Below are positions 29,762 through 62,684 of a stretch of 64,000 nucleotides of DNA, in pieces. Under the pieces are notes generated by a model, which ran no database searches, was not told the DNA's origin, and saw nothing but the letters and a program-made list of their open reading frames with translations. The translations under genes were made by a program, and so were the position numbers. This DNA is from a virus. Numbering within the stretch: position 1 is the stretch's first letter; each line of letters opens with the position of its first letter. The stretch spans positions 64,001-128,000 of the IMG/VR virus record IMGVR_UViG_3300027850_000002, one strand, 5' to 3'.

Positions 29762-30130
29762 GTGTCCTTCGTCAGCAACGCGCACGGTCGAGGCGTGGTC
29801 GCCGCTCTCGTGCGGTTCGGTCTCAAGAACGCAGCCGAGGAGCTGCGGCTGAAAATCCCGAGCCGTACGTTTCACGGATTCGACGCGGCCCACAAAACAG
29901 AAGCGGACCGCGGCGCGAAGAAAGCAGCTGACGAGATCGAGGGCAACGCGAACAACCTCGCGGACATGTTCAAGCAGCTCGAAGAGGGTGTTTCACCCGC
30001 CGTTCAGCTTGCCTCGCGTGACCCGCTCGATCGACAAGTGTCGTGGGGCGCACCGTCGAACCTTGCGGCCGGCGATGCGGGGAACCGCGTTAGTGATATG
30101 GGACAACCAACCGGCTTTGGAGGCGTCTGA
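29762..30130 (+). CDS. Small protein with shared N-terminal signal motif
   Basis: SNAHGRGVVAALVRFGLKNAA. Confidence 0.7.
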   Translation: MSFVSNAHGRGVVAALVRFGLKNAAEELRLKIPSRTFHGFDAAHKTEADRGAKKAADEIEGNANNLADMFKQLEEGVSPAVQLASRDPLDRQVSWGAPSNLAAGDAGNRVSDMGQPTGFGGV

Positions 30131-30537
30131 TGCTCGATCGTTTTGTTAACCAGGGTCGCATTGACGCGATGGTGCGTTTCAAGGTCAGCATGTCGCTGGG
30201 TAAACCAGGTGGCGGGAGTCGCTTCAGCGCTCCGCCAATGGCAGCAGCACCGGCTGCGGCTGCCGCCAGTGCGGGCGGCGGCGGTTTCATGGACAAGGCC
30301 AAAGCGTTCGGCAGTGGCCAGCTCGGGGCCGCGAAGGACCTTCTGGGCAATATGCGCCAAGGCCTCGGCGGAGCAGCGTCCCCCGAGCTAGGTGCGGCAG
30401 CTCGCGGTGCTGCGCTCGGCAATCTCAAGACTCTCGCGCCGTCGCTCCTCGCAGGCGGCGGTCTCTACTTGATGCACAAGCACAAGCAGGAGCAGGCGCA
30501 GGCGCGGCAGCAGCAGATGATGCCGGGCAGTTTCTGA
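30130..30537 (+). CDS. Gly/Ala-rich protein with shared N-terminal signal motif and C-terminal hydrophobic segment
   Basis: FVNQGRIDAMVRFKVS; LAPSLLAGGGLYLM. Confidence 0.7.
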   Translation: MLDRFVNQGRIDAMVRFKVSMSLGKPGGGSRFSAPPMAAAPAAAAASAGGGGFMDKAKAFGSGQLGAAKDLLGNMRQGLGGAASPELGAAARGAALGNLKTLAPSLLAGGGLYLMHKHKQEQAQARQQQMMPGSF

Positions 30538-30548
30538 AACGTTGAACC

Positions 30549-32330
30549 ATGCCGACGACCCTTGGCCAACATCTCGTCGATTCGATCCTTCCACAGAAGT
30601 GGAAGGGTGGCGGCGTTCTGACCAAGGGCGCGTTGAACACCATGCTTCTGGGTGTGGCCAAGGACGACGTGCACAAGTACCCCGACGTCGTGACACGGCT
30701 CAAAAGGCTGGGTGACGAGGTCGCTACGCTCGACGGAATTTCCGTCGGTCTCGACGACATTGCACCGCACGCAACCGACCGTGACGCCGCGTTGAAGCCG
30801 CACGCTGACGCGTTCCACCAGGCGACGAACAACCCCGACAAGATCAAGGCCCTCATCGGCGGGCAGAACGCGATGCTCAACCTCGCGCGCAATCACCCCG
30901 GCACGATGGGTGAGATGGTACGTGCTGGCGGACGCGGCAACGCCGCGCAGCTCATGCGTACGGTTGGAGCGCCGGTGTTTGCCGAAGATTCCAAAGGGAA
31001 AGTCATCCCGTGGTTCGTCAACAAGAGCTTCTCCGAAGGACTCAAGCCGGCAGACGCATGGGTGATGGGCGGGCAGGCGCGCGTCAATGCGGTGGTCTCG
31101 AACATTTCGGTCGTTGAACCAGGAGACCTTGCCAAAATTCTCGTCAACAACATGGGCGACCAGCTCGTGTCGTCCGTCGACTGCGGAACGCACAATGGTC
31201 TCGCGATGCTTCCGACCGATGCCCACATCATCGATCGGTACCTGGCAGGCACGAATCAACTGATCACGCCGCAGCTTGCGTCGCACCTCGCCAAAGAAGG
31301 CAAGGACGTCATCGTGCGTTCACCGATGACTTGTCAGGCCGCACACGGTGTCTGTCAACACTGCCAGGGCTTGTCGACGTCAGGACACGCCCACCCCATC
31401 GGGACGAACATCGGCGTACGCGCGGCACAGGCCCTCGCGGAACCTCTCACCCAGTTCGCGCTCAACGCCAAGCACGGCGGACGTGTGGTTGGTGTCGACG
31501 ACGAGAAGCGGCTCGAGGGCATCAAAGGCGTGCGAGCACTGCTCGAGATTCCATCGTCGTTCGCGCACAAGGCCGTGCTCTCGGATCGTGACGGGTCGGT
31601 GTCAAAGATCGACAAGGCACCACAAGGCGGTCACTTCGTCTTCGTCGGCGCCGGCAGTCACTACGTACCGCCCGCGCACAAGGTGACGGTCAACGTCGGC
31701 CAGTCAATGTACGCGGGCGACCTGCTCTCAGACGGCGTTCCCAAGCCAGACGAAATCGTTCAACACAAGGGACTCGGCGAAGGACGGCGTTACCTCGTCG
31801 ACGCGCTCTCGGACGTCTACAAACGTGCCGGCTCCGAGATCGACAAACGGCACCTGGAAATCTTGGCCAAGAGCGTGCTCAACCACGTTCAGATCACAGA
31901 CCCAGGTCCGCACGATGCCTTTCTCAAAGGTGACATCGTCAACTACAACCAGTTCCAGTCGGCGGTCGCTGCGTCGAAACAACGGCGTCCGACGGCAGAC
32001 GCGATCGGCGAAACGCTTGCCGAAGGCGTCCTACATCACACTGCGGGCACGTCCATGACACAGCCGATGGTCGATCAACTCGTTCGCCACGGAATCACAA
32101 CCGTCGCGACCGCGAATCCCGGTCCGCGCGCACTGCCTTTCATGCGGCCCGCGTCACGTACGCCGCTGCTCAACCCTGATTGGATGGCACGTCTCGCACA
32201 CCGTTACTTGAAAGAGTCACTGTTGACGGGCATCCACCGTGGTGATGTTTCGAACTTGCATGGAGCGTCACCCGTACCTGCGTACGTTGCAGGCACTGAG
32301 TTTGGCTTAGGCGAAGAGGGCCATTACTGA
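30549..32330 (+). CDS. Phage RNA polymerase beta' C-terminal half (bridge helix, trigger loop)
   Basis: TTLGQ..ILP, SVGLDD, AGGRGN, SFSEGL, DCGT, RSPMTC..GVCQHC, AAQALAEPLTQFALNAKHGG, IDKRHLEI. Confidence 0.93.
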   Translation: MPTTLGQHLVDSILPQKWKGGGVLTKGALNTMLLGVAKDDVHKYPDVVTRLKRLGDEVATLDGISVGLDDIAPHATDRDAALKPHADAFHQATNNPDKIKALIGGQNAMLNLARNHPGTMGEMVRAGGRGNAAQLMRTVGAPVFAEDSKGKVIPWFVNKSFSEGLKPADAWVMGGQARVNAVVSNISVVEPGDLAKILVNNMGDQLVSSVDCGTHNGLAMLPTDAHIIDRYLAGTNQLITPQLASHLAKEGKDVIVRSPMTCQAAHGVCQHCQGLSTSGHAHPIGTNIGVRAAQALAEPLTQFALNAKHGGRVVGVDDEKRLEGIKGVRALLEIPSSFAHKAVLSDRDGSVSKIDKAPQGGHFVFVGAGSHYVPPAHKVTVNVGQSMYAGDLLSDGVPKPDEIVQHKGLGEGRRYLVDALSDVYKRAGSEIDKRHLEILAKSVLNHVQITDPGPHDAFLKGDIVNYNQFQSAVAASKQRRPTADAIGETLAEGVLHHTAGTSMTQPMVDQLVRHGITTVATANPGPRALPFMRPASRTPLLNPDWMARLAHRYLKESLLTGIHRGDVSNLHGASPVPAYVAGTEFGLGEEGHY

Positions 32331-32776
32331 TGCTTGAGCGTGCACATACGAAGGGCATCGACGATGCCCTCACGTGTTTCCAGATCAAAGAGTCACGCTT
32401 TATTGATTCGGTCAAACGTATGGCGATCGGTCAACCTGGACGTGTCTTCGTCGAAGGGCCCAAGGCGTTCGCTCCCGGCGGTCTACTCGGACACAAGAAC
32501 GTCTGGTGGCCCGATGTCAAAGGCGCGCCTCTGAACTGGCTCGGTCGTGCGGGTACAGTCGCCGCACCCCTCATGGCATTGTCTGCTATGCGCTCAAATC
32601 CACACGAAGGCACTTTGTCAAACGCGCTTGGTGCGCTTGGTGGTATCGCAGGAAGCGCGTACGGTTTCCCTGCGCTCGGTATGATCGGTGGTCCTATGCT
32701 CGGAGCTGCGGGTGCGCATCTCGGGCGTGGTGTTGGCCACTTGCTCAGCAGTGAACCAAAGAATCCAAACCAATGA
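32330..32776 (+). CDS. Glycine-zipper protein with shared N-terminal signal motif
   Basis: RAHTKGIDDALTCFQIKES; GALGGIAGSAYG...GAAGAHLGRGVG. Confidence 0.7.
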   Translation: MLERAHTKGIDDALTCFQIKESRFIDSVKRMAIGQPGRVFVEGPKAFAPGGLLGHKNVWWPDVKGAPLNWLGRAGTVAAPLMALSAMRSNPHEGTLSNALGALGGIAGSAYGFPALGMIGGPMLGAAGAHLGRGVGHLLSSEPKNPNQ

Positions 32777-32985
32777 TCAACAACGCGTACAACAAAGGCC
32801 GAGCTGACGCACTCACACGCTTCAAGCTCAGCAATATACAAACGGGTGCAGCTGGCGCAAATCCGATGCTCGGCGGTCAAGCCGCGACAGGTTCGCGACC
32901 ACAGCCAGGCACTTCTTTGGCGCCGCCAACTTCTTCTGCTCCTCCAATGGCGGCAGCCGCTCCGAAGGCTCACGCCCTCGGTTAG
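32773..32985 (+). CDS. Small protein with shared N-terminal signal motif
   Basis: NAYNKGRADALTRFKLS. Confidence 0.7.
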   Translation: MINNAYNKGRADALTRFKLSNIQTGAAGANPMLGGQAATGSRPQPGTSLAPPTSSAPPMAAAAPKAHALG

Positions 32986-32993
32986 TGCAACTG

Positions 32994-33057: not shown

Positions 33058-34362
33058 ATGTTCAAGCATGCGTACGTCCGAGGCATCCAGACCGCGTTGG
33101 TCAACAACGGCGCAGCCGTGTTCCCCGACGAGACCACCGCGGCCAAGGTCGCGGACTACATCGCAGAGCGTGTCGAGATCGACCCGCTGACGGCGGTGCC
33201 ACGTGAGCTGACCCACAAGGTCGCCACTGACATCGTCGCTGCTTCGGATTGGATCAAGAAGCAGCCGAACTTCAAGGCGGCATCGTTCAACAAGCTCGCG
33301 ACGTGGGAAGACGTTGCGCAGGTCGCGGACCGCAACGCGACCCAGTTGATGACGAAGGCCGCCGAGGGTTCCACCATCGAAGGTGGCGACAAGGGAAACA
33401 CCGAGGGCCAGTCGCCTGTTGGTGAGACCAAGATGGACGCGACCCAGCGTCCTCCGGGCTACGCCGAGAACAGCCTCGGCAAGACCGACGTCGACACCCG
33501 TCCGGGCGCAGTTGGCAAGGAAGAGCCGCAGCCGGTTCAGCCCAAGGAGACTGACCACAAGGACAACTCGGTCGTGGAGCACTCGCGCACCGCGTCGCTC
33601 GCGGACATGTTCCGCAAGTCGGCTGAGGGTTCGACGATCCTCGGCGGAGACAAGGGCAACAAGGAGCCGACGACTGGCGAAGGCAAGATGGACGCGACGC
33701 AGCGTCCTCCGGGCTATGCCGTCCTTCCCCACCAGGGCGCCCTCGGTGCCATGATGGAGCAGGTCACGGGCCCCGCAGTGATCGGTCGCGAGACCCCGCA
33801 GCCGCACATGCCGAAGGAGTCGCCGAGCGGTTCGAACTCGCTCACCGAGCACTCGGCCAAGGCCGCTGCTGAAGACCCGTACATCACGCTCTTCAAGAAG
33901 GTCGCGTCCGAGATCCACGAGTACCTTCCGGGCGGTCTTCACGAGGACAGCAAGATCGCCGCGGTTCGCGCCTGCATGGGCATGACGACCGAAGAGAAGG
34001 CGTACTACCTCCGTGGCTTGCAGAAGGAAGCGGCCGACGCGTCGGTTGGTTCGGAAACGCGCACGGGTATGGGTCGCTCGCGTCCCGGTGCCTACGACGG
34101 TCGCTCTGCCAACCAGAGCACCAAGCAGACCGATGACCTTCCGCCGTTCATGAAGAAGGACGACGACGAGAAGAAGGACGAGAAGAAGGACGACGACAAG
34201 GGTGAGAGCAAGGGCGGAATGCCGGCATTCATCCAAGACAAGATCGACGCCCGCAACGCCGACAAGAAGGACGGCAACAAGGACGAGAAGAAGGATGACG
34301 ACAAGAAGGAAGCTTCGTTGCGCGACTTCTTCCGTCGCATCGACGCGGCCCAGCGCGCGTGA
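33058..34362 (+). CDS. Probable internal head/core protein with signal motif, about 12 K-x-A-type sites and an 87-aa internal duplication
   Basis: KHAYVRGIQTAL; two KxAEGSTIxGGDKGN...KMDATQRPPGYA units; K/D-rich tail. Confidence 0.7.
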   Translation: MFKHAYVRGIQTALVNNGAAVFPDETTAAKVADYIAERVEIDPLTAVPRELTHKVATDIVAASDWIKKQPNFKAASFNKLATWEDVAQVADRNATQLMTKAAEGSTIEGGDKGNTEGQSPVGETKMDATQRPPGYAENSLGKTDVDTRPGAVGKEEPQPVQPKETDHKDNSVVEHSRTASLADMFRKSAEGSTILGGDKGNKEPTTGEGKMDATQRPPGYAVLPHQGALGAMMEQVTGPAVIGRETPQPHMPKESPSGSNSLTEHSAKAAAEDPYITLFKKVASEIHEYLPGGLHEDSKIAAVRACMGMTTEEKAYYLRGLQKEAADASVGSETRTGMGRSRPGAYDGRSANQSTKQTDDLPPFMKKDDDEKKDEKKDDDKGESKGGMPAFIQDKIDARNADKKDGNKDEKKDDDKKEASLRDFFRRIDAAQRA

Positions 34363-40446: not shown

Positions 40447-41012
40447 CGTCCTTTGCTCGCGCTCTCGAAACGTCGGTCCTTCTCGCGGAGAAGATCGCGT
40501 CGTCGCGCTCGGAAAACCCGACGTTACGAGAGAAGCTCGCGCTCGCTGACTTCGCTGCGTTCGGCCTCTTCAAGCGGGCAGCGCTCGACCCAGCGGCCTT
40601 GTCTTCGCTGCAGCGTGGACTCGGTTGGGGTGTTGGGCTCGGAATCCCCGCGCTCGCTGCGGGACACATGTTCTTGAACGATGCGCGCGACCACAGCGGC
40701 GAAGTCCTGCGTGATGCACGCAACCAAGCGCTCATCACGGCAGCGGGCGTTGGCGGCATGCAAGCGCTCGGGGAGGCTTTCAAACGGAAGCCACAACCGT
40801 CGCAACACAACGTCAACGTTTCAATGCCGCAACAGCCAGAGCAGCCACAGCTCGACGATCAGCAAAGGCTCGCCGCCGCCATCATGGTCGATGATGTGCT
40901 CGAGGCAGCGTGCAGTCAGCTTAGCGATCCTGTCGCAAAGCACGCAGCGCTCGTGGAACTCATCAAACACCGCAGTGAAGCGACGAACCTTCTACGGAGT
41001 CTTTTGTCGTGA
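40443..41012 (+). CDS. K-x-A-rich protein with hydrophobic Gly-rich segment
   Basis: EKIAS, EKLAL, FKRAA; GLGWGVGLGIPALAAG. Confidence 0.7.
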   Translation: MTSFARALETSVLLAEKIASSRSENPTLREKLALADFAAFGLFKRAALDPAALSSLQRGLGWGVGLGIPALAAGHMFLNDARDHSGEVLRDARNQALITAAGVGGMQALGEAFKRKPQPSQHNVNVSMPQQPEQPQLDDQQRLAAAIMVDDVLEAACSQLSDPVAKHAALVELIKHRSEATNLLRSLLS

Positions 41013-42751
41013 AGAAGATCATCGAGCTGGATGACTACTTTCCGACGGGTGAACCGACCGTTCAAATCATCCTGCCGTGGAACAACGGACGTAGCGTCGA
41101 CACGAGTCGTGTTACCAAGTACGCGTCCGAAGCGCTCGATTACATCAAGCACGTCGCACCTGAGCCTGGCAAAACCGCGCTCCTGCTCAACGCGATGGGC
41201 GCCGAGGAGACCTACGGACCGAACCGCAACGGCGATGGGTTCCCTGAGTTTCCCGTCCCAGCTCGCGGCAAGATTGCATCGGCAGATCGTCGTTGGTTCG
41301 TACCACCGGGCGAAGAGCTGACGCACCATTACGCGTCGTTCGAAAAGAATCCTGCCCACGCGTTCATGCACCACGCAAACCGAGATCCGTCGAAGGCCTC
41401 TGGCGTGGTGAAGAAGGCGTTCTGGAATCCGCGCATGCATCGCGTGGAGCTGCTTACCCTTGTCGACAACGACAAGGACCCCGAGTGGATCAAGCGTGCG
41501 AGCGACGGTGAGTTCGTGCCCGTCAGCATGGGCTGTCGAATCAAGCGTGATGTCTGCGCACGATGCGGCAACGAAGCGCCCACGCGCGCGGACTACTGCG
41601 ACCACGTGAAGTTCGCGATGAATCAGGTCGACTCGAACGGGTTCAAGGACTATGTCCACAACCCATCGCCCGACTTTTTCGACATCTCGCGCGTGTTCCG
41701 CCCTGCGGATCGTACGGGCTACACACTCAAGAAAGTCGCAGAGACCTACGAGGTCCGACTCTCGGCAGACCTCGGCGAGATCGCCGATCGTCTCGCGCTC
41801 AAGAGCGGTGCTTCGCAAAAGCTATCCGACATCGACAAAGTGATTCGCGCTGAACCGCTCGCGTCCAGTACGCTCACACCAGACGAGAAATCGTTCATCG
41901 TAAAATTCCGGGACCACGCGGGTCCCAAGCTCGCGGCTGCACCGCGCATCAACACGGCAGGTCTGCATGTGTGGTCTCTCGGAGAGACGCTCACCGCTGC
42001 CGCAAAACACGGTGTCGTATTCAACGACCGTGAATTCATCGGACTCGCAACAAGCAAGCTCGCAGGACATCCAGTCACATTGCTTGAAGCACAGACGGAC
42101 AAGATCGCAGCCGCCGGTCGTTGGTCGCTCGCGCTGTTTGCTGAACGCCCTGAGCTACTCGCCGAAGTGATTGATAGCGGCGTGCTCGAGTCTTCAAAGA
42201 CCGCGAAGGAGTTAGATGTATTCTTCGCGAGTGTGAGCGAGAAGCGTGCGTACGCCGGAGAGATGCTCTATCGACGTCTCGTACCTGAAGATATCGGACT
42301 TGGCCCTGACGCTGCGCCCACCACGGACGTGCTGCACACGCAATACGGTGACACCACACGCGGTGCAGCGATCGATGCACAAGACGCAGTCACGCGAGCA
42401 CACATGGGCAAGGTGGTTGGCGGTGCAGGTCTGCTCCTCGGCGGATACAAAGCGCTCACTGCATTTCCATGGATGCGTAAATTCAAGGTGCCGCTTGCGA
42501 TCGGAGCAGGGGCTCTCGGCGCATCCACGTTGGGCAAACGTCCTGGTGGAACAATGCGTACCGATGAAGGCTACGACATTCCAGACATCACAGAACTGAC
42601 GTCGAAGACTGCATCGCAGGCGGCGTTTGTTCACCTTATCGAATGCGCACAAACAATGACGCGCAGATTCGATTTCTCGAGTATCAAGGTTGCGAACCTG
42701 GCGTCGTTAGATCAGGTGGCCATGGCGCTCGGTTCCATCGTCTTGACTTGA
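41009..42751 (+). CDS. Prohead (capsid maturation) protease with Zn-binding insert and K-x-A-rich C-terminal extension
   Basis: NRNGDGFP, FMHH (candidate His), VSMGC (candidate Ser), CARCG...CDH, FFDISRVFRPAD; upstream of the capsid genes. Confidence 0.75.
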   Translation: MKKIIELDDYFPTGEPTVQIILPWNNGRSVDTSRVTKYASEALDYIKHVAPEPGKTALLLNAMGAEETYGPNRNGDGFPEFPVPARGKIASADRRWFVPPGEELTHHYASFEKNPAHAFMHHANRDPSKASGVVKKAFWNPRMHRVELLTLVDNDKDPEWIKRASDGEFVPVSMGCRIKRDVCARCGNEAPTRADYCDHVKFAMNQVDSNGFKDYVHNPSPDFFDISRVFRPADRTGYTLKKVAETYEVRLSADLGEIADRLALKSGASQKLSDIDKVIRAEPLASSTLTPDEKSFIVKFRDHAGPKLAAAPRINTAGLHVWSLGETLTAAAKHGVVFNDREFIGLATSKLAGHPVTLLEAQTDKIAAAGRWSLALFAERPELLAEVIDSGVLESSKTAKELDVFFASVSEKRAYAGEMLYRRLVPEDIGLGPDAAPTTDVLHTQYGDTTRGAAIDAQDAVTRAHMGKVVGGAGLLLGGYKALTAFPWMRKFKVPLAIGAGALGASTLGKRPGGTMRTDEGYDIPDITELTSKTASQAAFVHLIECAQTMTRRFDFSSIKVANLASLDQVAMALGSIVLT

Positions 42752-42809: not shown

Positions 42810-43388
42810 ATGAAGCTCTCAAACGCACTCGGGATGATCAAAGGCGGCGAAAAGACCGCGAGCGCACCTGCGCCCACGGGAACTGCCTCTTCGTCGAGCG
42901 ACGCCGGCGAGCGCCTCAAGCAGGCACTCAAAGAAGCGACCGCTCCGGCACTACAGGCCAAGACGGCGGGTCAAGCCTCGCCCATCGAGGACCTGACCAA
43001 GATCGCCAATGACCTGAGCAAGGCCGAACATGACGCGCTGACCAAGGAGGCGCAGATGTATGGCGCCGCGGTCTGCGATGGTTTCATGGCGCGCGCAGCT
43101 CAGTACCAGGAAGCGGCCACGAAGGTCGCGGCCACGATGCCCACGAAGACCGCCGCGGTTGCAGGGGGCACATCGGACTTCGAGAAGTTCGCGTTCGAGA
43201 ACCCCGACCTGGTGAAGGAAGCCGCGGAACTCGGCTACGCCACCACGAAGAACCAGCTCGAGAAGCTCGGCGAAGCAGCCTACGCCAAGGGCTGGAACGA
43301 CACGGTCGAGACAATCCACAAGACGGCGAGCGATGCATTCATCGCCGGCTTCAAGGACACCCTCGCTCTGTTCGAGGGCGCACGCTGA
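42810..43388 (+). CDS. Scaffold-like helical protein with about 10 K-x-A sites
   Basis: EKTAS, AKTAG, TKIAN, TKEAQ, TKVAA, TKTAA, VKEAA, HKTAS; internal AAYAKGWNDT. Confidence 0.7.
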   Translation: MKLSNALGMIKGGEKTASAPAPTGTASSSSDAGERLKQALKEATAPALQAKTAGQASPIEDLTKIANDLSKAEHDALTKEAQMYGAAVCDGFMARAAQYQEAATKVAATMPTKTAAVAGGTSDFEKFAFENPDLVKEAAELGYATTKNQLEKLGEAAYAKGWNDTVETIHKTASDAFIAGFKDTLALFEGAR

Positions 43389-44889: not shown

Positions 44890-45828
44890 ATGTCGGCAGC
44901 GTACAAAACTCAGACCCAGCAGGTCTCGGCTCAGTTCATCAACTCCAACTTCGTCCGTAAGGTCGAGGACGGTCGCACCAAGGAGGCGGAGGCCGAGGGC
45001 ACCGCCTTCATCCGCCAGAAGCTCCGTCAGGAATCCTTCGCGCGCGAGATCATCGAGCCAGTCATGCTGGCGGACGATGAGATCGACCGCGACGAGAACA
45101 CGGATCAGCCCAAGAAGATCGTCGAGAAGGAGCCCGACTCCGTCGCCACGTTCGTGCCGTTCAACGGTACGGCGCAGCGCACGTGGTTCCGTGGCAAGCG
45201 CTTCTCGGTCTTCTTCGGCAAGACCGAGTCGCAGCGGTTCACCAAGAACAAGTTCGAGCTGATGACGTATCAGAACGACATCCGCAAGATCCTCTCCGAC
45301 AACTCGGTGAAGGACATGTCGGACCAGGAAGACCAGAAGTTCCTGGACACCATCAACGCGATCATCGCGTTGAACCTCGCGACGCAGCGCACCCTCGCGG
45401 GCGCGTTCAACTCGAGCGCGTTCAAGCAAGGCTTCCAGGCGCTCGTCAATCGGAAGCAGCCAATCGGCAAGCTCCTGATGTCGAAGTCGACGTACTACGA
45501 GGCCCTCGACCTGCCGGCGACCGCCGTCGGTAACGACGTGGCGTCGCGGCACTACGACGTGGGCATCGAGGCCGAGGAGAAGCTGTGGGGCATCCCCGTG
45601 GTTTCGACCATCAAGCGTGAGATCGTCGACGACGTCGCCGGTGCCACCCGCCGCTCGGTCTACGTGTTCGCGCCGCAGAACTACCTCGGCGTGTTCTTCC
45701 TGCTGCAGGACGCAACCCTGTACATCAAGCAGGAAGCCGACATCATCGAGTTCTGGAGCTACGCAGCCCCGGGCATCGGGATCGGCAACACGCTCGCGTC
45801 GCAGCGTATCGACCTGCCGTTCGCCTGA
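44890..45828 (+). CDS. Major capsid protein
   Basis: 312 aa, TAAGGAG SD, strongly biased codons, follows protease/scaffold/decoration; LWGIPVV and VYVFAP resemble HK97-fold C-terminal strands. Confidence 0.75.
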   Translation: MSAAYKTQTQQVSAQFINSNFVRKVEDGRTKEAEAEGTAFIRQKLRQESFAREIIEPVMLADDEIDRDENTDQPKKIVEKEPDSVATFVPFNGTAQRTWFRGKRFSVFFGKTESQRFTKNKFELMTYQNDIRKILSDNSVKDMSDQEDQKFLDTINAIIALNLATQRTLAGAFNSSAFKQGFQALVNRKQPIGKLLMSKSTYYEALDLPATAVGNDVASRHYDVGIEAEEKLWGIPVVSTIKREIVDDVAGATRRSVYVFAPQNYLGVFFLLQDATLYIKQEADIIEFWSYAAPGIGIGNTLASQRIDLPFA

Positions 45829-46419: not shown

Positions 46420-46899
46420 ATGCCGGTCATTGGAACACCGACGACGCCGACGGTGGTCTCAAAGGACCAAGTCCGCATGTTCATGCGTGACTATGCGAAC
46501 AACAACATCCTCCTCGACGATGTACAGTTCACCGATAAAGAACTGAACCTGGCGCTAGCCATGGCGACGAGTGCGTTCAATACCGTCACTCCCCAGACGA
46601 ACTTCACACCGTCGACATTTCCTCCGCAGCTGATGTACCTCCTGCTCATTGGTACGGTTCGATTCCTGCTCATGAGCGAGTCGTTCATGCAGGCAAGAAA
46701 CCAGGCGACCGTGCAGGACGGTGACATCTCACCAATCGGCATTTCAGATAAGGCCCAGCTGTATTCGTCGCTGGCGCAACAACTCAAGGCCGAGTGGGAT
46801 GAACTAACACGCGGTGTGAAGACGCAGAACAACATGGAAGCGGCCTACGCTTCATTGGGTTCTGGGTACCGAAACACGTCGCGGTTCAATCACTCGTGA
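46420..46899 (+). CDS. Probable head-tail adaptor/neck protein
   Basis: VRMFMRD...QFTDKEL helical pattern; position after MCP. Confidence 0.6.
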   Translation: MPVIGTPTTPTVVSKDQVRMFMRDYANNNILLDDVQFTDKELNLALAMATSAFNTVTPQTNFTPSTFPPQLMYLLLIGTVRFLLMSESFMQARNQATVQDGDISPIGISDKAQLYSSLAQQLKAEWDELTRGVKTQNNMEAAYASLGSGYRNTSRFNHS

Positions 46900-47165
46900 C
46901 CGTTCGCGCGTCATACGTGTGCGGACGGAATGCAGCGCTCGCACGGTTCAAGCTCGCAGGTACGATGGGTGCGAGCATCGGCGTCCAGCCAAAAGGTCCC
47001 GAGGTCAGCCACGGCACGGATCGCACGCAGTACCCGCCACAATCCGGCGGCACCAGTGCAGCACGTTCGAACATGCCTGATTGGTTGTGGGACCACTTCA
47101 CATCCTACGACAAGGTCGCGCCAGGGCGCGCGGATGGTACGTACGGACAAGAAGTCATCGGGTAA
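46896..47165 (+). CDS. Small protein with shared N-terminal signal motif
   Basis: ASYVCGRNAALARFKLAG. Confidence 0.7.
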   Translation: MTVRASYVCGRNAALARFKLAGTMGASIGVQPKGPEVSHGTDRTQYPPQSGGTSAARSNMPDWLWDHFTSYDKVAPGRADGTYGQEVIG

Positions 47166-47186: not shown

Positions 47187-47363
47187 ATGTCGAACCACCT
47201 GAAGACCGCACACGAGTACGGCGTCCAGAAGGCGCTCGAGAACGTCGGATACAAGAGCGCGGAGGAAGTCCGCCGCGATGCCGAGGCGCTCGGCATTCTC
47301 GAGCAGCCGACGAAGACGGCATCGACCTCGCTCGACGACCTGTTCCGCGCGCTCCAGAAGTAA
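47187..47363 (+). CDS. 58-aa protein with shared signal motif (not in ORF track)
   Basis: MSNHLKTAHEYGVQKALENVGYKSAEEVRRDAEALGILEQPTKTASTSLDDLFRALQK. Confidence 0.75.
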   Translation: MSNHLKTAHEYGVQKALENVGYKSAEEVRRDAEALGILEQPTKTASTSLDDLFRALQK

Positions 47364-47371: not shown

Positions 47372-47767
47372 ATGTCGCTGTTGCGCCAAAGGTCGGCTGA
47401 GGGCGGGCGCGCAGCGCTCGCGGCCTTTGGCGTGGTTAAGACTGCGACGGGGTTCAAGCAACCGGGGTTCAAGTCCGTCGGAATCCTACTTCCGAAGGCT
47501 GCGGATCTTCCGCCGATCCCACCGCCAAGCGTGCCTTCGCCGCTCGGTATTGGTAGGATCGAGAGCAACTACGACTTCGTACCCAAGGTCGCCTTCAACG
47601 TCGGAATGGGGGCTTCGACTTCCACTGACGGAGCGGGCGCTCAGCGGGGAGTTCCAGCGGATACGGGACGTCGTCAACGCAGCGTCATCGACCGGGCGTT
47701 CCAACGCAACGAAGACGATTACGCAACAAGCAGCATGCCGTTGCCAGGGGACGTTGTCGCGCCATGA
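47372..47767 (+). CDS. Protein with shared N-terminal signal motif
   Basis: RSAEGGRAALAAFGVVKTA; PKAAD, PKVAF. Confidence 0.7.
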   Translation: MSLLRQRSAEGGRAALAAFGVVKTATGFKQPGFKSVGILLPKAADLPPIPPPSVPSPLGIGRIESNYDFVPKVAFNVGMGASTSTDGAGAQRGVPADTGRRQRSVIDRAFQRNEDDYATSSMPLPGDVVAP

Positions 47768-48561
47768 CGCTCGAACTCATCTACGCAAATGGGCAGCTCG
47801 CGGCACTCGAACGCTACAAGCTCGGATTCCCCGCGCACCCAACGGTCGCGAACAGCGCCGTGCTGACGACGAAGAAAACTTCACCGACACTGCCCGCTGC
47901 AGCACAGCAGGGGATGGCGCCACCATCAACGCCCATGGGCCTCTCTCAGATCTTCGATGCGCACGAACAAGGTGAAACGCGCTCGGAACCTCGGCGCAAG
48001 CTGTCGGCCGATAATCTATGCACGTCGTGCCGAAGGATGAAGCACTACGGCAAATGCAGTCGTCCGCGTGCGATTCCCGAGAAGGCCGCTGATTTAAACA
48101 TCGGGATGCAGGGCTACAGCCCTGAACAGGGCAACAACCCATCCACGAGCCCTAACTACCGCTCAGCGGTCAGCTCGATCAGCTCGCTCACGCGCGCGTT
48201 AGAGGGTCGCCCCGCCGATGAGCAGGCAGCATCTGGGTTCGCGGACCTGTACCGCGGGGGCGGGATTTCGAACATGGCGGATGAGCCGGGCCAGATGTCG
48301 GGCAGCCTCGCCAAAGTCGCGAACAAGCTCAGCGCCTTCATGTTGCCCGACGCAGGGCTCCATTCGATGCACGAGCAGCGGGGACCGACCGTGAACCCGT
48401 ACGAAGAGCAGCGAACACGGATGGGAGCGCCTGTCGGCTTCGGCGACGAGGGGCTGCAACGCATCAATCGGGCCTTCAATCAGATCGACCACGCGGCCGA
48501 CACCACGAACATCGGGGGCGGCGCCGGCGATCCAGAGCCAGGGCCGGCGGTCCTTGGCTGA
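47764..48561 (+). CDS. Protein with shared N-terminal signal motif and small CxxC-H-C cluster
   Basis: LIYANGQLAALERYKLG; RKLS/..CTSC..KHYGKC..EKAA; AKVAN. Confidence 0.7.
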   Translation: MTLELIYANGQLAALERYKLGFPAHPTVANSAVLTTKKTSPTLPAAAQQGMAPPSTPMGLSQIFDAHEQGETRSEPRRKLSADNLCTSCRRMKHYGKCSRPRAIPEKAADLNIGMQGYSPEQGNNPSTSPNYRSAVSSISSLTRALEGRPADEQAASGFADLYRGGGISNMADEPGQMSGSLAKVANKLSAFMLPDAGLHSMHEQRGPTVNPYEEQRTRMGAPVGFGDEGLQRINRAFNQIDHAADTTNIGGGAGDPEPGPAVLG

Positions 48562-52573: not shown

Positions 52574-53026
52574 GTGTCGGACTCCTTTTTCGACAAGTTC
52601 ATCGCTGACCTCGTGAAAGGTGCCAACACCAACTCGAGGGAGAATGGCGGGCCCGGCGTGAACATCATCGTGGCGCGCGAAAACCACGGATGTGAAGAGA
52701 AACTCGCGAGCGAGAAGCTTGGAACGATCGCAGACGCCTATGCCAACGGTGCAACGGCAGCTGCTGCGGCGTTCGGAGTCAAGGAAGCGTTTCTCCCGGC
52801 GCTCCTTCCGCTCGCTGGTTCTCTGCTTGGAGGCACTGCGCTCCGTGCCGGTGCGGGCGCCGTCGCCAAAGGGGCGATGGGTCGCGGTGCAGCCGGTCTT
52901 GCTTCCAAGGTGGTGCCGAAGATGACGGGCGGCATCGGTGGCGCAGCCACGGACATGGCAGGTTCGATGGTAGGCGGTGCCATCGGCAACAAGCTCGCGC
53001 CGCAGCCGCAGCAGCAGCCGCAATAG
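52574..53026 (+). CDS. Signal-motif protein with amphipathic/glycine-zipper C-terminal part
   Basis: EKLAS, EKLG, DAYANGATAAAAAFGVKEA/FLPALLPLAGSLLGG. Confidence 0.7.
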   Translation: MSDSFFDKFIADLVKGANTNSRENGGPGVNIIVARENHGCEEKLASEKLGTIADAYANGATAAAAAFGVKEAFLPALLPLAGSLLGGTALRAGAGAVAKGAMGRGAAGLASKVVPKMTGGIGGAATDMAGSMVGGAIGNKLAPQPQQQPQ

Positions 53027-54680: not shown

Positions 54681-54689
54681 GGGAACTCC

Positions 54690-54923
54690 ATGTCTTGGAT
54701 CATGACAGGCGTTCTGGCGTTCGTGGTGGGGGTGATTGTGTGGGCGGAGATTCGTTGCGGTCGTCGCAACAAGATCTTCCAAGCAATGATCGACCCCGAG
54801 ATCGACACGCTCAAGACCAACGCCATTTCCAAGTATCGTGAACGGTTTGGCAAGGACCCCACGGGCCCGTACCTGATCGTCAGCGAACCTCGCGCACGCG
54901 ACGGGCTCGAAAAACGGTCATGA
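54690..54923 (+). CDS. Small single-TM membrane protein
   Basis: N-terminal hydrophobic helix followed by a basic patch. Confidence 0.6.
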   Translation: MSWIMTGVLAFVVGVIVWAEIRCGRRNKIFQAMIDPEIDTLKTNAISKYRERFGKDPTGPYLIVSEPRARDGLEKRS

Positions 54924-59416: not shown

Positions 59417-59824
59417 ATGCGCTTCATTCTCGTCCTCGTTCTCGTCATCGGTCTGGCCAGCACGACCGCGTGTCCTCCAGGTCCAGGTCCTGTCGGTCCG
59501 GTGATCAACGCCGTTGTCGATTGTCTCGGTGCGAACCGCCCGCAAATCGACACCCTTATCAACGAGTTCAAGGGACCGATTCTCGGTGGTGGTTCGGTCT
59601 CGTGGCCGGACGTCAAGCTTCGGGCAACACAGGCCGGCAAGGACATCGGCGGCTGTTTCATCATGGAACTGACGCAGTGGTTCCTCAGTGGAACGCGCGC
59701 AGCGCCGGATGCAAAGGCGGCGCACGACGCTGCAGAGGAATTCCGTAGGACCGTCGGAGGAAACGCGACGTACTCCACGATCTGCGTGCGGGAAGACGGT
59801 ACCAAGTCGGCGTGTAAGCTGTGA
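59417..59824 (+). CDS. Lipoprotein (spanin-like candidate)
   Basis: MRFILVLVLVIGLASTTA/C lipobox-like signal; within the lysis cassette. Confidence 0.55.
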   Translation: MRFILVLVLVIGLASTTACPPGPGPVGPVINAVVDCLGANRPQIDTLINEFKGPILGGGSVSWPDVKLRATQAGKDIGGCFIMELTQWFLSGTRAAPDAKAAHDAAEEFRRTVGGNATYSTICVREDGTKSACKL

Positions 59825-60567
59825 CGCTGAAGATCGGCAAAACGGGCGCAGTACCGTCGCGACATGATCCAAAGACGGTCACGTACAAGGCGATCCACAA
59901 AGCGCTCGCAATTGCCGATCCGAGACGTACACCGCCATTTCACGTCGACACTCGGCCACGCAACGCACGCTGGGACATCAACGGCAACGACCGCTACGGC
60001 TGCTGCACGTTCGCTGGCATCGTCCGTATCATGCAGAACAACGCGGCCCGCAAGGGCCGTACGCTTGACATCACGGACGAGGACGTCATCAAGGCGTACC
60101 TGGACAGCACAGGTGGCGTCGACGCAGGGCAGATGCCGATCAACGCGCTGAACTACATGCGCAGCATCGGCATCAAGGGCCACAAGGTGTTGGCGTATGC
60201 ACGGGTCGGTGACCGAGACGTGTACGAACGACAAAGCGCGCTCGCGACGTTCGGTTCGCTGTACGTCGCCGCAGGGCTGCCTGCCAAACTCAATGATGAT
60301 CGGGACCTACGGTGGGAGTTGACGCCGCGTGAGAAACGCACGGCTAGCGACGAGCCGCGCTCGATGGGCGGACACGCCTACCCGATTTTTGGTTTTCAAC
60401 GCGGTGAAGAGTTCTCCGTACCGTGGGACCAGGAGGTCATCGAAGAGGCCAACTGGACGGACTATTACCGCGAGGAGACCTGGGTGTTCGCTGACAACCA
60501 GGAAACGGACCAACTTCTGCTCGGTGTCATGTTCGCGCAACTCGCAGCGATCAAGGAGACCGCATGA
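59821..60567 (+). CDS. Papain-like cysteine peptidase
   Basis: NDRYGCCTFAG, GGHAY, downstream W. Confidence 0.65.
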   Translation: MTLKIGKTGAVPSRHDPKTVTYKAIHKALAIADPRRTPPFHVDTRPRNARWDINGNDRYGCCTFAGIVRIMQNNAARKGRTLDITDEDVIKAYLDSTGGVDAGQMPINALNYMRSIGIKGHKVLAYARVGDRDVYERQSALATFGSLYVAAGLPAKLNDDRDLRWELTPREKRTASDEPRSMGGHAYPIFGFQRGEEFSVPWDQEVIEEANWTDYYREETWVFADNQETDQLLLGVMFAQLAAIKETA

Positions 60568-61562
60568 CCCTCAAGCTAGGCAGTCAAGGACCCGAGGTCG
60601 AACAGCTGCAGCTCAAGTTGAAGGCCGCCGGGTACGACCCTGGCAACGTCGATGGAGACTACGGCAAGCGTACTGTGGACGCCGTGCTCGCGTTCCAAAC
60701 AGACCGTCCAGATCTCGACGATGACGGTGCTGCAGGTCCAATGACCCTCGGCGCTCTGGATGCTGCGATTGCAAAGACGAAGCCCGCGTCTGCAACGCCC
60801 GTGGCGCCGACATCCACCGTGCCTTGCGACGCGACAACGTGGGCCGCTTTCATGTCACTTGTCGACAAGGTCACAAAGCTTCCCGTCAAGTACGGACCTG
60901 GGCGAGGTCTTTGGTCCAAAGACAAATTCGTCATCACGTACAATCCCGGATCGCTCGTGAAAGACGTCAGGTGGACCGGCTGGCCGAACGTTCTCGGAAA
61001 GCCGTACCCAAGCTTTCACTGTACGTCGTGGTGCAACTTCTTCATGAGCTGGTTGTGTCGCCGCAACCAGGACTACACGCACGCGGGCAACATCCCCTCG
61101 CTGTTCGACCTTCTTTCGAAAGGTCCAGAGGTCCATCAGAACCCGGGCGCTGGTCCGTACCGAGGCTTTGGGGACGTGTGCTATCCGATTGTCCCCGATG
61201 GGTCAGCTGTGAAGCGCAGCGGCGTGCCCAAGGTCATGGATGTACGTGAGCTGTACGCACGTCGGGCGGACTTGCCGACCTTCGTCGTGTTCGGCCAATC
61301 GACGAAGAAAACCGGCGGCTGGAATTGGTGGCATCACACAGGGCTGTACGTCGCGCGCGACGGCAAGCTGTTCCGGATCGCCGCCGATGGCTTCAAGGGG
61401 TCGAACGGCTACTCTGCGAGCCCGATGAAGTACGTGGAAATCACGCCCCAGAACCTCAGTGCGTTCGACGGCTGTGTGTACCGCTGCTACGGCGTCCGCA
61501 CGACGGACGGTACCTACGGCGACAAGAGCAGGCCGTACGCGACCGTGGACTTCGAAGCGTAA
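60564..61562 (+). CDS. Endolysin: peptidoglycan-binding domain + Cys/His (CHAP/NlpC-like) catalytic domain
   Basis: LKLGSQGPEVEQLQ..GYDPG.VDGDYG..T..AV..FQ..DGAAGPMT; HCTSW...HHTGL. Confidence 0.75.
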   Translation: MTLKLGSQGPEVEQLQLKLKAAGYDPGNVDGDYGKRTVDAVLAFQTDRPDLDDDGAAGPMTLGALDAAIAKTKPASATPVAPTSTVPCDATTWAAFMSLVDKVTKLPVKYGPGRGLWSKDKFVITYNPGSLVKDVRWTGWPNVLGKPYPSFHCTSWCNFFMSWLCRRNQDYTHAGNIPSLFDLLSKGPEVHQNPGAGPYRGFGDVCYPIVPDGSAVKRSGVPKVMDVRELYARRADLPTFVVFGQSTKKTGGWNWWHHTGLYVARDGKLFRIAADGFKGSNGYSASPMKYVEITPQNLSAFDGCVYRCYGVRTTDGTYGDKSRPYATVDFEA

Positions 61563-61576
61563 TCCCGCGTCGGTCC

Positions 61577-61585: not shown

Positions 61586-61590
61586 AGGGC

Positions 61591-61956
61591 ATGGCGCAGA
61601 CCCTGACCGTCGCTGGCGCGGCCTCCTGTCCTTTCGTGGACGGTGGCGCCGTTGCTCCCATTCCCCTTGCGACTGCTCTCGGCTTCACGTCACGAGCAGA
61701 CTTCCAGCGGAGCTATCTCGGCGCCATTGTCGATGATCCTGTCAACTTCGGGACGCTCGCAGTGCCGGGTGCCAAGGGCGTCATCGTCATGTGCACGGCA
61801 GGCAGTTGCACGATCAAGTTCAACGGCGGTCTCGATGCGTGGCCCCTCTCGCCCGGCGGCTACTTCATTTGGATCAACACCGCGCAGCCATTCCCGACGT
61901 CGGCTCTGATCTCGACGACAGGTGCTGCAGGCGTGTTCTTCCTCGCGGTAGGATGA
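61591..61956 (+). CDS. Hypothetical beta-rich (virion?) protein
   Basis: 121-aa ORF after the promoter motif. Confidence 0.6.
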   Translation: MAQTLTVAGAASCPFVDGGAVAPIPLATALGFTSRADFQRSYLGAIVDDPVNFGTLAVPGAKGVIVMCTAGSCTIKFNGGLDAWPLSPGGYFIWINTAQPFPTSALISTTGAAGVFFLAVG

Positions 61957-61959
61957 CCA

Positions 61960-62409
61960 ATGCTACAAAGGGCTTTCGAACAGGGCTGTAGCAACGCGTG
62001 CGCACGCTTCGGCGTGAAGATCGCAGCTGTCCCTCTCGCGCGCCCGATACCGCGAATGACGACGCCACACGTGCCAAAGCCCGGCTTCAAGCTCACACCT
62101 CAAGAAGAAGCGCAGGCGTTACGCATGAAGAGTCAGTCGCCTGCACAACGGCAACAAGAACTCGGCTTGGACCGTGACACGCAGAACACGCAGTTCGCAC
62201 AGCGGCACGACCTGCCCTCTGCATCCCCTGTGGCGGCTGCCGGGCGGGGTGCGCGTGGTGCGGGTGGTTTCATGCGTCCCATCAAGCGGGGCCTCGGTCT
62301 CGCTGCGCTCGGGGCCGCGGGTACGGCAGCCTACGGTCTCCACAAGCAGCACCATATTGACGAAGAGAAAATTCCGCTCGTCTACGCCCCTCTGCAAGGT
62401 GGTTTCTGA
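61960..62409 (+). CDS. Protein with shared N-terminal signal motif and C-terminal hydrophobic segment
   Basis: RAFEQGCSNACARFGVKIAA; GLGLAALGAAGTAAYGL. Confidence 0.7.
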   Translation: MLQRAFEQGCSNACARFGVKIAAVPLARPIPRMTTPHVPKPGFKLTPQEEAQALRMKSQSPAQRQQELGLDRDTQNTQFAQRHDLPSASPVAAAGRGARGAGGFMRPIKRGLGLAALGAAGTAAYGLHKQHHIDEEKIPLVYAPLQGGF

Positions 62410-62684
62410 TGACGCTCAAGCACGCGTACGCGAGAGGTTGTCGAGCGGCGCTCGAGAAGTTCGCGCTCGATCCTCCAACCGCTGTTGACGCGTTCATGGG
62501 CGCGGTGGAATCAGGCAAGGATGTTGCGCCTGAACCGGCATTGCCGCCGATGTCTCATGCACCCGGCGAGATGCTTCCTGCACTCGACGGCACGACGCCA
62601 CTCTCGACGTCGCCGCCCATGTCGCCGGACCTCGGTTCCACCATCGGTGCACCGCCACCACCCATGATGGGCGCGCTGGGCTGA
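62409..62684 (+). CDS. Small Pro-rich protein with shared N-terminal signal motif
   Basis: KHAYARGCRAALEKFA. Confidence 0.7.
   Translation: MTLKHAYARGCRAALEKFALDPPTAVDAFMGAVESGKDVAPEPALPPMSHAPGEMLPALDGTTPLSTSPPMSPDLGSTIGAPPPPMMGALG

Follow-up and report, generated by a model that had tools for sequence, protein, structure and literature searches.

In phage T4, the internal proteins IPI, IPII and IPIII and the protein Alt carry an N-terminal capsid-targeting sequence (CTS) of 10 residues, which is removed by the prohead protease gp21 (Mullaney and Black 1996, reviewed in PMC9026906). Processing of many head proteins at one short motif is also described for the giant phages phiKZ/SPN3US (gp175/gp245), and two of the SPN3US substrates carry propeptides of 20 and 24 residues at the N-terminus (PMC10052503). 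In herpesviruses, assemblins cut the pUL26/pUL26.5 scaffold system (R-site, M-site) after Ala before Ser or Thr, with the M-site near the scaffold C-terminus (PMC4498786). A signal of about 30 residues at the N terminus of P1 DarB suffices to bring a reporter into the capsid (PMC9024508), but it is known on one protein and not as a family-wide tag.

We analyzed a window of 64,000 nucleotides from an uncultured phage of 175 kb. About ten small late proteins, otherwise unrelated, start with a tag of ~20 residues, a helix followed by a Lys-x-Ala end, which also occurs in many relatives. The consensus, M-x(2-6)-L-x-x-A-[YH]-x-x-G-x-x-[AD]-A-L-x-[RK]-[FLY]-(G-x)-K-x-[ASG], is found at the start of nine ORFs in the window and one elsewhere in the genome, with three to five weaker variants beyond these. 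Tags occur on the late strand only, 3-9 codons downstream of the start codon. The tag-bearing genes, named below by their first nucleotide, and the neighboring RNA polymerase (RNAP) genes are as follows.

25340..32330, + strand: multisubunit RNAP genes, a beta-beta'N fusion (25340-29755) and beta'C (30549-32330)
29762..30130, + strand: tagged gene, 122 aa, between the beta-beta'N and beta'C genes; tag residues 1-24 (nt 29762-29833), ending FGLKNA before AEE
30130..30537, + strand: tagged gene, 135 aa; tag residues 1-20 (nt 30130-30189)
32330..32776, + strand: tagged gene, 148 aa, directly 3' of beta'C; tag residues 1-22 (nt 32330-32395)
32773..32985, + strand: tagged gene, 70 aa; the most canonical tag, residues 1-20 (nt 32773-32832)
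33058..34362, + strand: 434 aa; tag degenerate (MFKHAYVRGIQTAL); internal repeats, acidic/Lys-rich tail
46896..47165, + strand: tagged gene, 89 aa; tag residues 1-21
47187..47363, + strand: tagged gene, 58 aa; tag residues 1-25, ending GYKSA before EE
47372..47767, + strand: 131 aa; weak variant of the tag (SAEGGRAALAAFGVVKTA before T), 6.1 bits only
47764..48561, + strand: tagged gene, 265 aa; tag residues 1-21
52574..53026, + strand: 150-aa ORF 3' of the sheath gene; tag-like segment internal, residues ~54-72, FGVKEA before F
61960..62409, + strand: tagged gene, 149 aa, 3' of the endolysin genes; tag residues 1-22, ending FGVKIA before A
62409..62684, + strand: tagged gene, 91 aa; tag residues 1-19

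The tag is real, far beyond chance. Nine strong instances (29762, 30130, 32330, 32773, 46896, 47187, 47764, 61960 and 62409) gave HMM E-values of 1e-8 to 1e-6, with the best score for 32773 and 21-28 bits for 29762, and a six-frame HMM scan of the whole 175-kb genome returned no match on the other strand and none in early genes. Leave-one-family-out models recovered seven of the nine window tags. 62409 scored 23.0 bits, 61960 21.2, 29762 19.3, 46896 14.7, 47764 11.7 and 32330 11.6, while 30130 was weak (2.7-9 bits). At most one non-training match scored above the recovered tags, and we infer that this is the tagged gene at genome position 138553, a further strong instance, since it lies outside the training set and reached 14.8 bits in the genome scan. 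Across 1.56 Mb of related loci, all 100 matches of at least 10 bits were on the coding strand, the opposite strand having none, and 91 of them have an in-frame start 1-9 codons 5' of the tag; a complete relative of 187,862 bp has 11 matches, every one on the late strand and within 33 kb.

The Gly and one Ala are invariant across 67 distinct tag sequences. All four codons of each are in use at these positions and the nucleotide identity of the tags is 47%, so conservation is at the protein level, as proposed in an earlier sequence-only reading of this DNA, and the tag is under protein-level selection. The tag has two elements: an amphipathic helix, one face of which is made up of small residues (A..G...A), and behind it a short extended stretch, [FLY]-(G-x)-K-x-[A/S/G]. 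In 46 of 67 tags the K-x-[ASG] keeps a constant spacing from the invariant Gly, against a background of 8%. An AF2 model of 32773, built with the tag alignment, shows a helix at residues 2-16 (pLDDT about 80) and disorder in the remainder. The name "signal peptide" given in the sequence-only reading is misleading because the tag has no hydrophobic core; the layout that it described, in which a short helix at the N-terminus leads through K-x-small into a variable body, holds and is found on late-strand genes only, and its translations agree with ours at all cited coordinates. Its list of instances is kept for the nine strong tags, while 33058 (HMM E 0.37 by itself) and 47372 are weaker and 53035, 34359 and 62689 are half-motif or doubtful. 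Distant relatives of 33058 keep LFKRAxxRGxxxELxRxG at the N-terminus, so that its weaker tag is supported by orthologues; 47372 has the G-x-x-A-L..F..K-T-A part, conserved in its orthologues, and relatives of the 52574 family carry the tag N-terminally.

Behind the tag, the proteins diverge completely: pairwise BLAST of the post-tag parts gave E > 0.05 for every pair, the best hhalign probability was 11%, and neither PHROGs nor Pfam gave the tagged proteins a name. Each body family nevertheless keeps conserved blocks of its own, as in the orthologues of 29762, which retain the tag and an invariant AAEELRLKIP block, or in 47764, with a conserved Cys cluster, and 46896 has 14 distinct orthologues. 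Some bodies resemble enzymes or zinc-binding modules. Several, being largely disordered, rich in Gly-zippers or dense in K-x-A sites, could be degraded core or scaffold components. Like the T4 CTS, the tag is a short N-terminal peptide common to divergent, non-essential-looking proteins of a contractile-tailed phage, on a set of proteins that differs between related phages. It is, however, different in sequence, about twice as long, much more conserved, with its invariant Gly and Ala, and present on ten or more proteins per genome. The tag also resembles encapsulin cargo-loading peptides, short peptides on a flexible Gly/Ala/Pro-rich linker, and could likewise bind the inside of an HK97-fold shell; encapsulin peptides, in contrast, mostly sit at the C-terminus and undergo no proteolytic removal, and binding of the present tag to the capsid protein is hypothetical.

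The gene neighborhood offers a first alternative. Two tagged genes sit between the beta-beta'N and beta'C genes, which were assigned by Pfam (Rpb2_6, Rpb1_1, Rpb1_2, Rpb1_5), and in close and distant relatives two to five lie between or directly after the RNAP genes. 29762 is preceded by CCTATAAT 5 nt upstream, and the start codon of 30130 overlaps the stop codon of the gene before it. The tag might dock small accessory factors (subunits, sigma-like proteins, adaptors) on the phage multisubunit RNAP, its spread elsewhere being secondary. We regard this as very improbable, as at least six tagged genes lie elsewhere (neck, tail or lysis regions, or alone), the bodies, disordered or membrane-like, do not look like factors, and both the K-x-A ending and the look-alike segment in a scaffold-like protein, described below, would be left unexplained.

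The K-x-A ending of the tag recurs in the head module, for which the relevant genes are the following.

41009..42751, + strand: prohead protease, 580 aa (phrog_18299)
42810..43388, + strand: scaffold-like protein, 192 aa, with K-T-A-[S/A/G] islands at residues 15, 51 and 171
44890..45828, + strand: major capsid protein, 312 aa, 40.7% identical to the protein annotated as major capsid protein in Salmonella phage Arash

In its AF2 model, the protease has a gp21/assemblin-fold domain at residues ~50-246, which VIA-align matches to T4 gp21 (5JBL) with Z 10.2 and to herpes assemblins with Z 8.8; residues 252-579 make up a helical extension. K-x-A-[S/A] is enriched in head-module proteins only, both in the present phage and in Arash: the protease has six K-x-A-[SA] sites (p=0.002), the scaffold-like protein five against 1.0 expected, and about 4,000 aa of tail proteins contain none. 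In the major capsid protein, K31-E32-A33 are invariant (alignment A2). Two tagged proteins are also enriched, 29762 and 33058, the latter with six sites against 0.9 expected (p<0.002). Newly found here are the protease fold with its extension, the head-only K-x-A-[S/A], the scaffold islands and the same motif at the end of the tag. As in herpesviruses, the protease continues into a helical, scaffold-like extension on the same chain and the putative cut follows Ala, before Ser or Ala; unlike there, P3 is Lys instead of Val/Leu/Ile and the scaffold-like protein is a separate gene with no in-frame nested product. A shared N-terminal cargo tag is not known in herpesviruses.

The scaffold-like protein itself contains a tag-like AYxxG...K-T-A-S segment at residues 156-174, 19 residues from its C-terminus, in which G161, K171 and A173 are invariant; its sites are conserved at 0.9-1.0 against 0.06-0.6 for the surroundings (alignment A3). 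The internal variant reported earlier in this gene (AAYAKGWNDTVETIHKTAS) is thus present as a look-alike, but it is below the reach of the HMM. This segment suggests a second alternative, in which the tagged proteins are building blocks of the prohead core or inner scaffold rather than cargo: the tightly packing A..G...A face of the shared helix would let them co-assemble with one another and with the scaffold-like protein, most would be cut at K-x-A and expelled, and little or nothing would reach the host. Most of the body sequence is disordered and low in complexity, other small Gly-zipper proteins of the head module bear K-x-A sites, 33058 has 6-10 sites, and 47187, with a second conserved site at residues 43-46 (TKTA before S), would yield three short peptides. 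Filler would, however, need neither the conserved C-terminal blocks kept by each family nor the bodies that are enzyme- or zinc-module-like, and the tagged genes vary like accessory genes whereas scaffolds are usually core genes. We consider this alternative unlikely, though the strongest of the three discussed here.

Gly-zipper or transmembrane-like segments occur in 30130 (C-terminal, after an Ala/Gly/Pro-rich linker), 32330, 52574 (after the tag-like segment), 61960 and the gene at genome position 138553, and 61960 and 62409 follow endolysin genes. With the amphipathic character of the helix, this would suit a tag unrelated to capsids, taking late proteins to the host membrane, envelope or a host factor for lysis control, superinfection exclusion or envelope remodeling. 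The tag nevertheless lacks a hydrophobic signal-peptide core and ends in a head-module-specific motif, in which 33058 and 29762 are enriched, and most tagged genes sit among portal, RNAP, head and neck genes; we therefore think such a role improbable.

More than 100 IMG/VR relatives retain the tag, which persists across a clade where RNAP identity drops to about 45%; a search for a cultured member of this clade found none. It is missing from the nearest cultured relative, Arash, and no tagged gene has an Arash homologue. Tagged genes are insertions in the backbone common to both phages: they lie between the RNAP genes and behind them, between the homologues of gp233 and gp234, and 3' of the sheath and endolysin genes, and the set differs among relatives. 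CCTATAAT also lies 6 nt upstream of 47187. The tagged gene at 138553 stands alone at a great distance from the late cluster, with a CCTATAAT element of its own, and is missing from five relatives, which fits a portable tag. Arash virions package the homologous RNAP, the homologues being the most detected and among the most detected proteins by mass spectrometry (PMC10585845), so the lineage packages large protein cargo. The same is true of phiKZ/SPN3US, which package a virion RNAP and ejection proteins, but these have two RNAP sets instead of the single one here, their motif is A-x-E or S/A/G-x-E, and their propeptides have no common targeting helix.

Altogether, we give a probability of roughly one half to the tag being a modular, T4-CTS-like targeting propeptide, removed by the prohead protease after K-x-A. 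Its helix-then-disorder model, the unrelated bodies with their own blocks, the insertion sites and the head-specific K-x-A argue for this, and the T4 analogy drawn in the sequence-only reading is circumstantially supported by the protease fold, the head-specific motif, the matching tag end and the Arash virion RNAP. Against it, known gp21-family proteases cut after Glu (T4 L/I-x-E, SPN3US A-x-E) and not Ala, so that the case for a K-x-A site is made by motif statistics and the herpesvirus analogy; about a third of the tags have no clean K-x-[ASG]; the most obvious cargo, the RNAP subunits, is untagged; several tagged genes have tail or lysis genes, not head genes, as neighbors; the Gly-zipper hydrophobic segments also suit membrane proteins; and the Arash virion list of 116 proteins (PMC10585845) may include contaminants. 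The description of the bodies as effectors for injection is unproven.

Under the propeptide reading, late genes scattered in the structural operons would supply the tag-carrying proteins, and the helix would dock them on a component of the assembling prohead core, candidates being the scaffold-like protein, the C-terminal helices of the protease-scaffold fusion and the inside of the shell. The gp21/assemblin-fold protease would then cut after K-x-A, as it may do in the scaffold-like and other head-module proteins at the same motif, and the mature bodies would stay in the head, to be ejected with the DNA and virion RNAP or degraded as core material.

Small and otherwise unrelated late proteins of this virus begin with a common helix of about 20 residues ending in K-x-[ASG], hereafter the tag, and every position at which the sequence-only reading had placed one translates to the sequence that it gave. 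A profile built from nine N-termini (genes starting at 29762, 30130, 32330, 32773, 46896, 47187, 47764, 61960 and 62409 of the window) was run against the whole genome in six frames and returned the same nine with E values of 1e-8 to 1e-6, with no comparable match on the opposite strand or among early genes. This comparison of an HMM of the N-termini with early genes had been proposed beforehand, and it bears the motif out. When the profile was iterated with relatives, a tenth strong copy appeared at genome position 138553, outside the window. The original count of 12 or more tagged proteins is therefore reduced to nine or ten strong instances, the remaining three to five being weak or partial. 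The tag-like sequence cited at 62689 was not convincing.

The relatives comprise 110 loci (1.56 Mb) from two IMG/VR scans, with capsid protein identities of 63-97% and RNA polymerase (RNAP) identities of 40-88%. At a threshold of at least 10 bits they gave 100 hits on the coding strand and 0 on the opposite strand, and 91 of the 100 are preceded at 1-9 codons, most commonly 3-5, by a start codon in frame. The start codons of the tagged genes in the window overlap or abut the stop codon of the gene before. One complete relative (187,862 bp, terminal repeats present) has 11 hits, all on the late strand within 33 kb. In more distant relatives (RNAP identity about 45-50%) the N-termini are still recognisable as the same, MNNYQAGCLSALTKLGF and MSNFEAGYNATLASLGITKEA being examples. 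Models from which a whole family had been left out recovered seven of the nine window tags, with at most one non-training hit scoring above; we infer that this hit, which the script leaves unnamed, is the tagged gene at 138553, a gene outside the training set. An ungapped leave-one-out model of eight sequences performed less well than the family-level model and missed three of the nine.

Across 67 distinct sequences the logo reads M-x(2-6)-L-x-x-A-[YH]-x-x-G-x-x-[AD]-A-L-x-[RK]-[FLY]-[K or G-x-K]-x-[A/S/G], in which the Gly and the Ala after it are invariant and the conserved positions cluster on a single helix face. The stripe of small residues on this face (A, G and A at i, i+4 and i+8) appears to be the pattern typical of very close helix-helix packing. 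An AF2 model of the 70-aa product of tagged gene 32773, computed with the tag alignment, is helical over residues 2-16 (pLDDT about 80) and disordered in the remainder. The invariant positions draw on all four Gly and all four Ala codons, and identity at the nucleotide level is 47%, so selection acts on the peptide, in agreement with the conservation at the protein level that had been claimed. Codon usage and strand bias rule out a DNA or RNA element, or chance, as the origin of the tag. The name of signal peptide originally given to it is misleading: polar or charged residues alternate with small or hydrophobic ones (L..AY..G..AAL.RF) without a hydrophobic run, and the hydrophobic core of 7-15 residues that follows a basic N-region in Sec/Tat signal peptides is absent from the logo. 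A tag that routes late proteins to the host membrane or envelope is, in our judgement, distinctly unlikely. Beyond the tag, many of the remaining protein parts (the bodies) are rich in Gly, Ala and Pro, and several have Gly-zipper-like hydrophobic end segments.

The virus record is a single sequence of 175,415 bp with a completeness of 94% by CheckV, and the window covers its bases 64001-128000. From about 23.1 kb of the window on, every real gene lies on the + strand, and this late module contains the following features.

Features of the late module (window coordinates, strand, description)
23124-24914, + strand, portal-like gene
25340-29755, + strand, RNA polymerase beta-beta'N fusion
30549-32330, + strand, RNA polymerase beta'C
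33-46 kb, + strand, head module, which holds the next three genes
41009-42751, + strand, prohead protease
42810-43388, + strand, scaffold-like protein
44890-45828, + strand, major capsid protein
after the head module, + strand, neck genes
50178-52571, + strand, sheath
55283-56689, + strand, gp5-like spike
60564-61562, + strand, endolysin with PG_binding_1 domain

The nearest cultured relative is Salmonella phage Arash (capsid protein identity 40.7%), in which the order of the portal, RNAP, protease and capsid genes is identical. The RNAP beta subunit is the most-detected protein of the Arash virion proteome, and beta' is in the top five (PMC10585845). The genome studied here has only one RNAP set, which is multisubunit. 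On these two grounds its virions very probably contain the polymerase, and large protein cargo is packaged in this lineage. Two small tagged genes lie between the two parts of this set (25340-32330). That the tag docks accessory factors on the polymerase is a reading to which we give very little credence. The tag is absent from the Arash late region and no homologue of any tagged protein was found in Arash, hence nothing about the tagged proteins can be read from the Arash virion proteome; no cultured phage bearing the tag was found.

The bodies are mutually unrelated, as had been supposed from their sequences: all pairs have BLAST E values above 0.05, and the best profile-profile probability is 11% (hhalign). 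These figures come from filtered BLAST and hhalign, used in place of a first clustering that had fused five families through low-complexity linkers. Searches of ten tagged proteins against Pfam and PHROGs returned nothing except one chance-level row. Each tagged family nevertheless keeps conserved blocks of its own in its orthologues, which shows that the tagged ORFs are real genes. The 29762 family has the block AAEELRLKIPSRTFHGFDAA and the more weakly tagged 47372 family a conserved C-terminal block, while orthologues of the 265-aa product of 47764-48561 conserve a Cys cluster (C-x2-C ... H-x-G-K-C) that is possibly a small zinc-binding module. Compared with the backbone shared with Arash, the tagged genes are insertions, located between and after the RNAP genes, between the homologues of Arash gp233 and gp234, after the sheath and after the endolysin, consistent with a portable tag carried by accessory late proteins.

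The tenth strong copy belongs to a gene at genome positions 138553-139947 (74553-75947 in window numbering, past the window end), which lies on the + strand, alone among opposite-strand genes. Its product consists of the tag, a Gly-zipper segment and a body, in that order. The ESM Atlas clusters nearest to the body are phage ATP-grasp proteins (RimK/TTL/D-Ala-D-Ala-ligase-like; score 0.88), a feature-based lead that hints weakly at an ATP-grasp enzyme. The Atlas entry of this protein begins at residue 30, which would leave out the tag. No relatives of the gene were found in IMG/VR by pattern search or in five related records. A CCTATAAT element is positioned 9 nt upstream of its GTG start. The fuller element CCTATAAT[TA] occurs four times in the window (2073, 29749, 47173 and 50138), where 0.09 would be expected. 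The genome as a whole has 11 copies, ten on the + strand (those outside the window at genome positions 37128, 52656, 61074, 138536, 167263 and 167900) and one on the - strand (genome position 154962). A start codon usually follows 5-11 nt downstream, and the element looks like a phage promoter -10 element yielding leaderless or nearly leaderless mRNAs. Three copies are immediately upstream of tagged genes, and a CTATAAT stands before gene 61591, which opens the run containing tagged 61960 and 62409.

We then turn to the 580-aa product of 41009, which is assigned to phrog_18299 'head maturation protease'. Residues 50-246 of its AF2 model are well modelled and align with T4 gp21 (5JBL) with a Z score of 10.2 and an rmsd of 2.9 A over 129 residues (VIA-align); the herpesvirus assemblins rank after T4 gp21, with a Z score of 8.8. 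Foldseek alone was weak (E 0.04), the gp21 match emerging with VIA-align re-ranking. A phmmer search of the protease against PDB sequences gave no match, and Pfam at E values up to 5 gave nothing useful for the protease, the scaffold-like protein and their neighbours. Judged by the modelled fold, the genome encodes a gp21-family (assemblin-fold) prohead protease. Residues 252-579 form long helices in the model, the same arrangement as in herpes pUL26, where the protease is joined to a scaffold-like arm (PMC4498786); hhalign detected no relation between this extension and the scaffold-like protein. A three-chain prediction of the capsid protein, the scaffold-like protein and tag residues 1-40 scored 0.00, below the mark, on a job unlike the tool's calibration set, and weighs neither for nor against binding.

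Of the 67 sequences, 46 close the tag with K-x-[A/S/G] at position +9 or +11 relative to the invariant Gly; the background rate is 8%. Among late proteins K-T-A is one of the most over-represented tripeptides (19 observed, 5.4 expected). With shuffling within each protein as the control, enrichment of K-x-A-[S/A] is confined to head-module proteins; tail proteins, over about 4,000 residues, contain essentially none.

K-x-A-[S/A] sites in three head-module proteins
42810, scaffold-like protein: 5 observed, 1.0 expected
41009, protease: 6 observed, 0.8 expected
33058, tagged protein: 6 observed, 0.9 expected

The proteins of 40443, 43898, 38142, 34539 and 29762 are also enriched, as are Arash gp220, gp223 and gp225 (p <= 0.002; sites such as LVKEAS, IEKTAS and MTKQAS). 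In the 192-aa scaffold-like protein, K-T-A-[S/A/G] sites at residues 15, 51 and 171 have a conservation of 0.9-1.0 across 33 orthologues, against 0.06-0.6 around them, and these K-T-A-S islands may be likened to the herpes sites VQA-S and YLQA-T (PMC4498786). Site 171 is 19 residues before the C-terminus, which is the position of the herpes M-site (VQA-S) relative to the scaffold C-terminus; a cut at the M-site releases the scaffold from the shell (PMC4498786). The segment before site 171, AAYAKGWNDTVETIHKTAS, has tag-like spacing yet is undetected by the tag profile. Altogether, the head-only enrichment, the conserved scaffold islands, the tag-end statistics and the herpes analogy suggest that proteases of this lineage likely cut at K-x-A followed by S or A, and that such a site likely forms the end of the tag. 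Of the protease end ascribed to the tag by the sequence-only reading, the closing K-x-[ASG] is seen in these 46 tags, and the cleavage is putative. Characterised gp21-family enzymes cut after Glu (PMC10052503, PMC9026906). Downstream of the tags there is no conserved L/I-x-E, the T4 motif; a Glu-type x-x-E site was also considered and occurs in some families (AAEE, SAEE, G[DP]E) without being general. In several Arash head proteins (gp220, gp221, gp223 and gp224; Arash 125001-175000), N-terminal stretches of 14-34 residues end in K-x-A (DGIVKVA↓S, MTKQA↓S and LLKAA↓G are examples), and gp223 has three repeats of G-x-x-F-x-E-A-V-E-L-V-K-E-A-S, which suggests that Arash head proteins share the protease motif but lack the standard tag helix.

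Several other features of the region were recorded. Both ends of the 995-aa head-module protein of 34539-37526 are homologous to Arash gp218. Its residues ~740-850, rich in Gly, Pro, Met and Gln, include a series of GMDPSM/GMDPTM repeats, and its residues 243-327 have a weak endolysin-like match. In and near the head module (39164-41012, 43392-44025 and 53035-53634) lie genes for many small proteins whose hydrophobic segments are of the Gly-zipper type, LLGGGALLGGGALLG being one; Arash gp221 and gp224 resemble these proteins, and a possible role is that of internal or ejection proteins entering membranes. A 534-aa protein (62686-63999, running on to genome position 128290) has a P-loop kinase-like region (Pfam AAA_18, E 3e-5, under the curated cut-off), which follows a long N-terminal stretch of disorder and a segment of Gly-zipper type. 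The stretches 54414-55270 and 59821-61562 look like a lysis region, with three small holin-like membrane proteins and a PG_binding_1 protein (E 1.5e-13), upstream of which a 248-aa protein was assigned to no family.

Our best reading, to which we give a probability of about one half, is that the tag is a targeting propeptide resembling the T4 capsid-targeting sequence (CTS). The tag helix would dock late accessory proteins on the prohead core, the prohead protease would then remove it by cutting after K-x-A, and the bodies would remain in the head alongside the RNA polymerase. The tagged proteins could also be core or scaffold material themselves, co-assembling through the helix and then being degraded, which we regard as unlikely; this differs from the CTS-like reading only in the fate of the bodies, and one or other of the two is probably correct. 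The T4 CTS is a 10-residue peptide common to IPI-III that is removed by gp21 and carries foreign proteins into heads (PMC9026906). Two of its hallmarks, a short N-terminal peptide common to unrelated proteins and a gp21-family prohead protease, are matched here by nine or ten strong instances per genome and by the assemblin-fold protease. These are the parts of the proposed T4-analogous system that stand, with targeting and cleavage as its predicted steps. In its proposed action the tag also resembles the N-terminal signal on phage P1 DarB (PMC9024508) and short SPN3US propeptides (PMC10052503). It differs from all three systems in sequence, in length, in the strength and breadth of its conservation and in its putative cut after Ala, and more proteins per genome are tagged here.

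It is tempting to speculate, as a more tentative proposal, that a large uncultured clade packaging a virion RNAP uses one portable packaging code, about 20 residues long and made up of a docking helix and a K-x-A↓S site for an assemblin-like protease, to load at least ten fast-evolving proteins for delivery to the host, including enzyme-like bodies such as the possible ATP-grasp, with new genes joining by gaining the tag and a late promoter. Should the CTS-like reading prove wrong, about ten proteins per genome still share a short motif that lacks an explanation. If it is right, this would be the clearest sequence-defined capsid-packaging tag so far, longer and better conserved than the T4 CTS and present on many proteins per genome across a wide environmental clade, and a simple profile would be enough to catalogue, from metagenomes, the injected or internal proteins of such phages. 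Given a cultured host system, the tag could then serve as a protein-packaging handle. On the same reading a gp21/assemblin-fold prohead protease would cut after Ala, as in herpesviruses, and not after Glu, as in T4 and phiKZ, which would tie the phage and herpesvirus maturation systems closer together.
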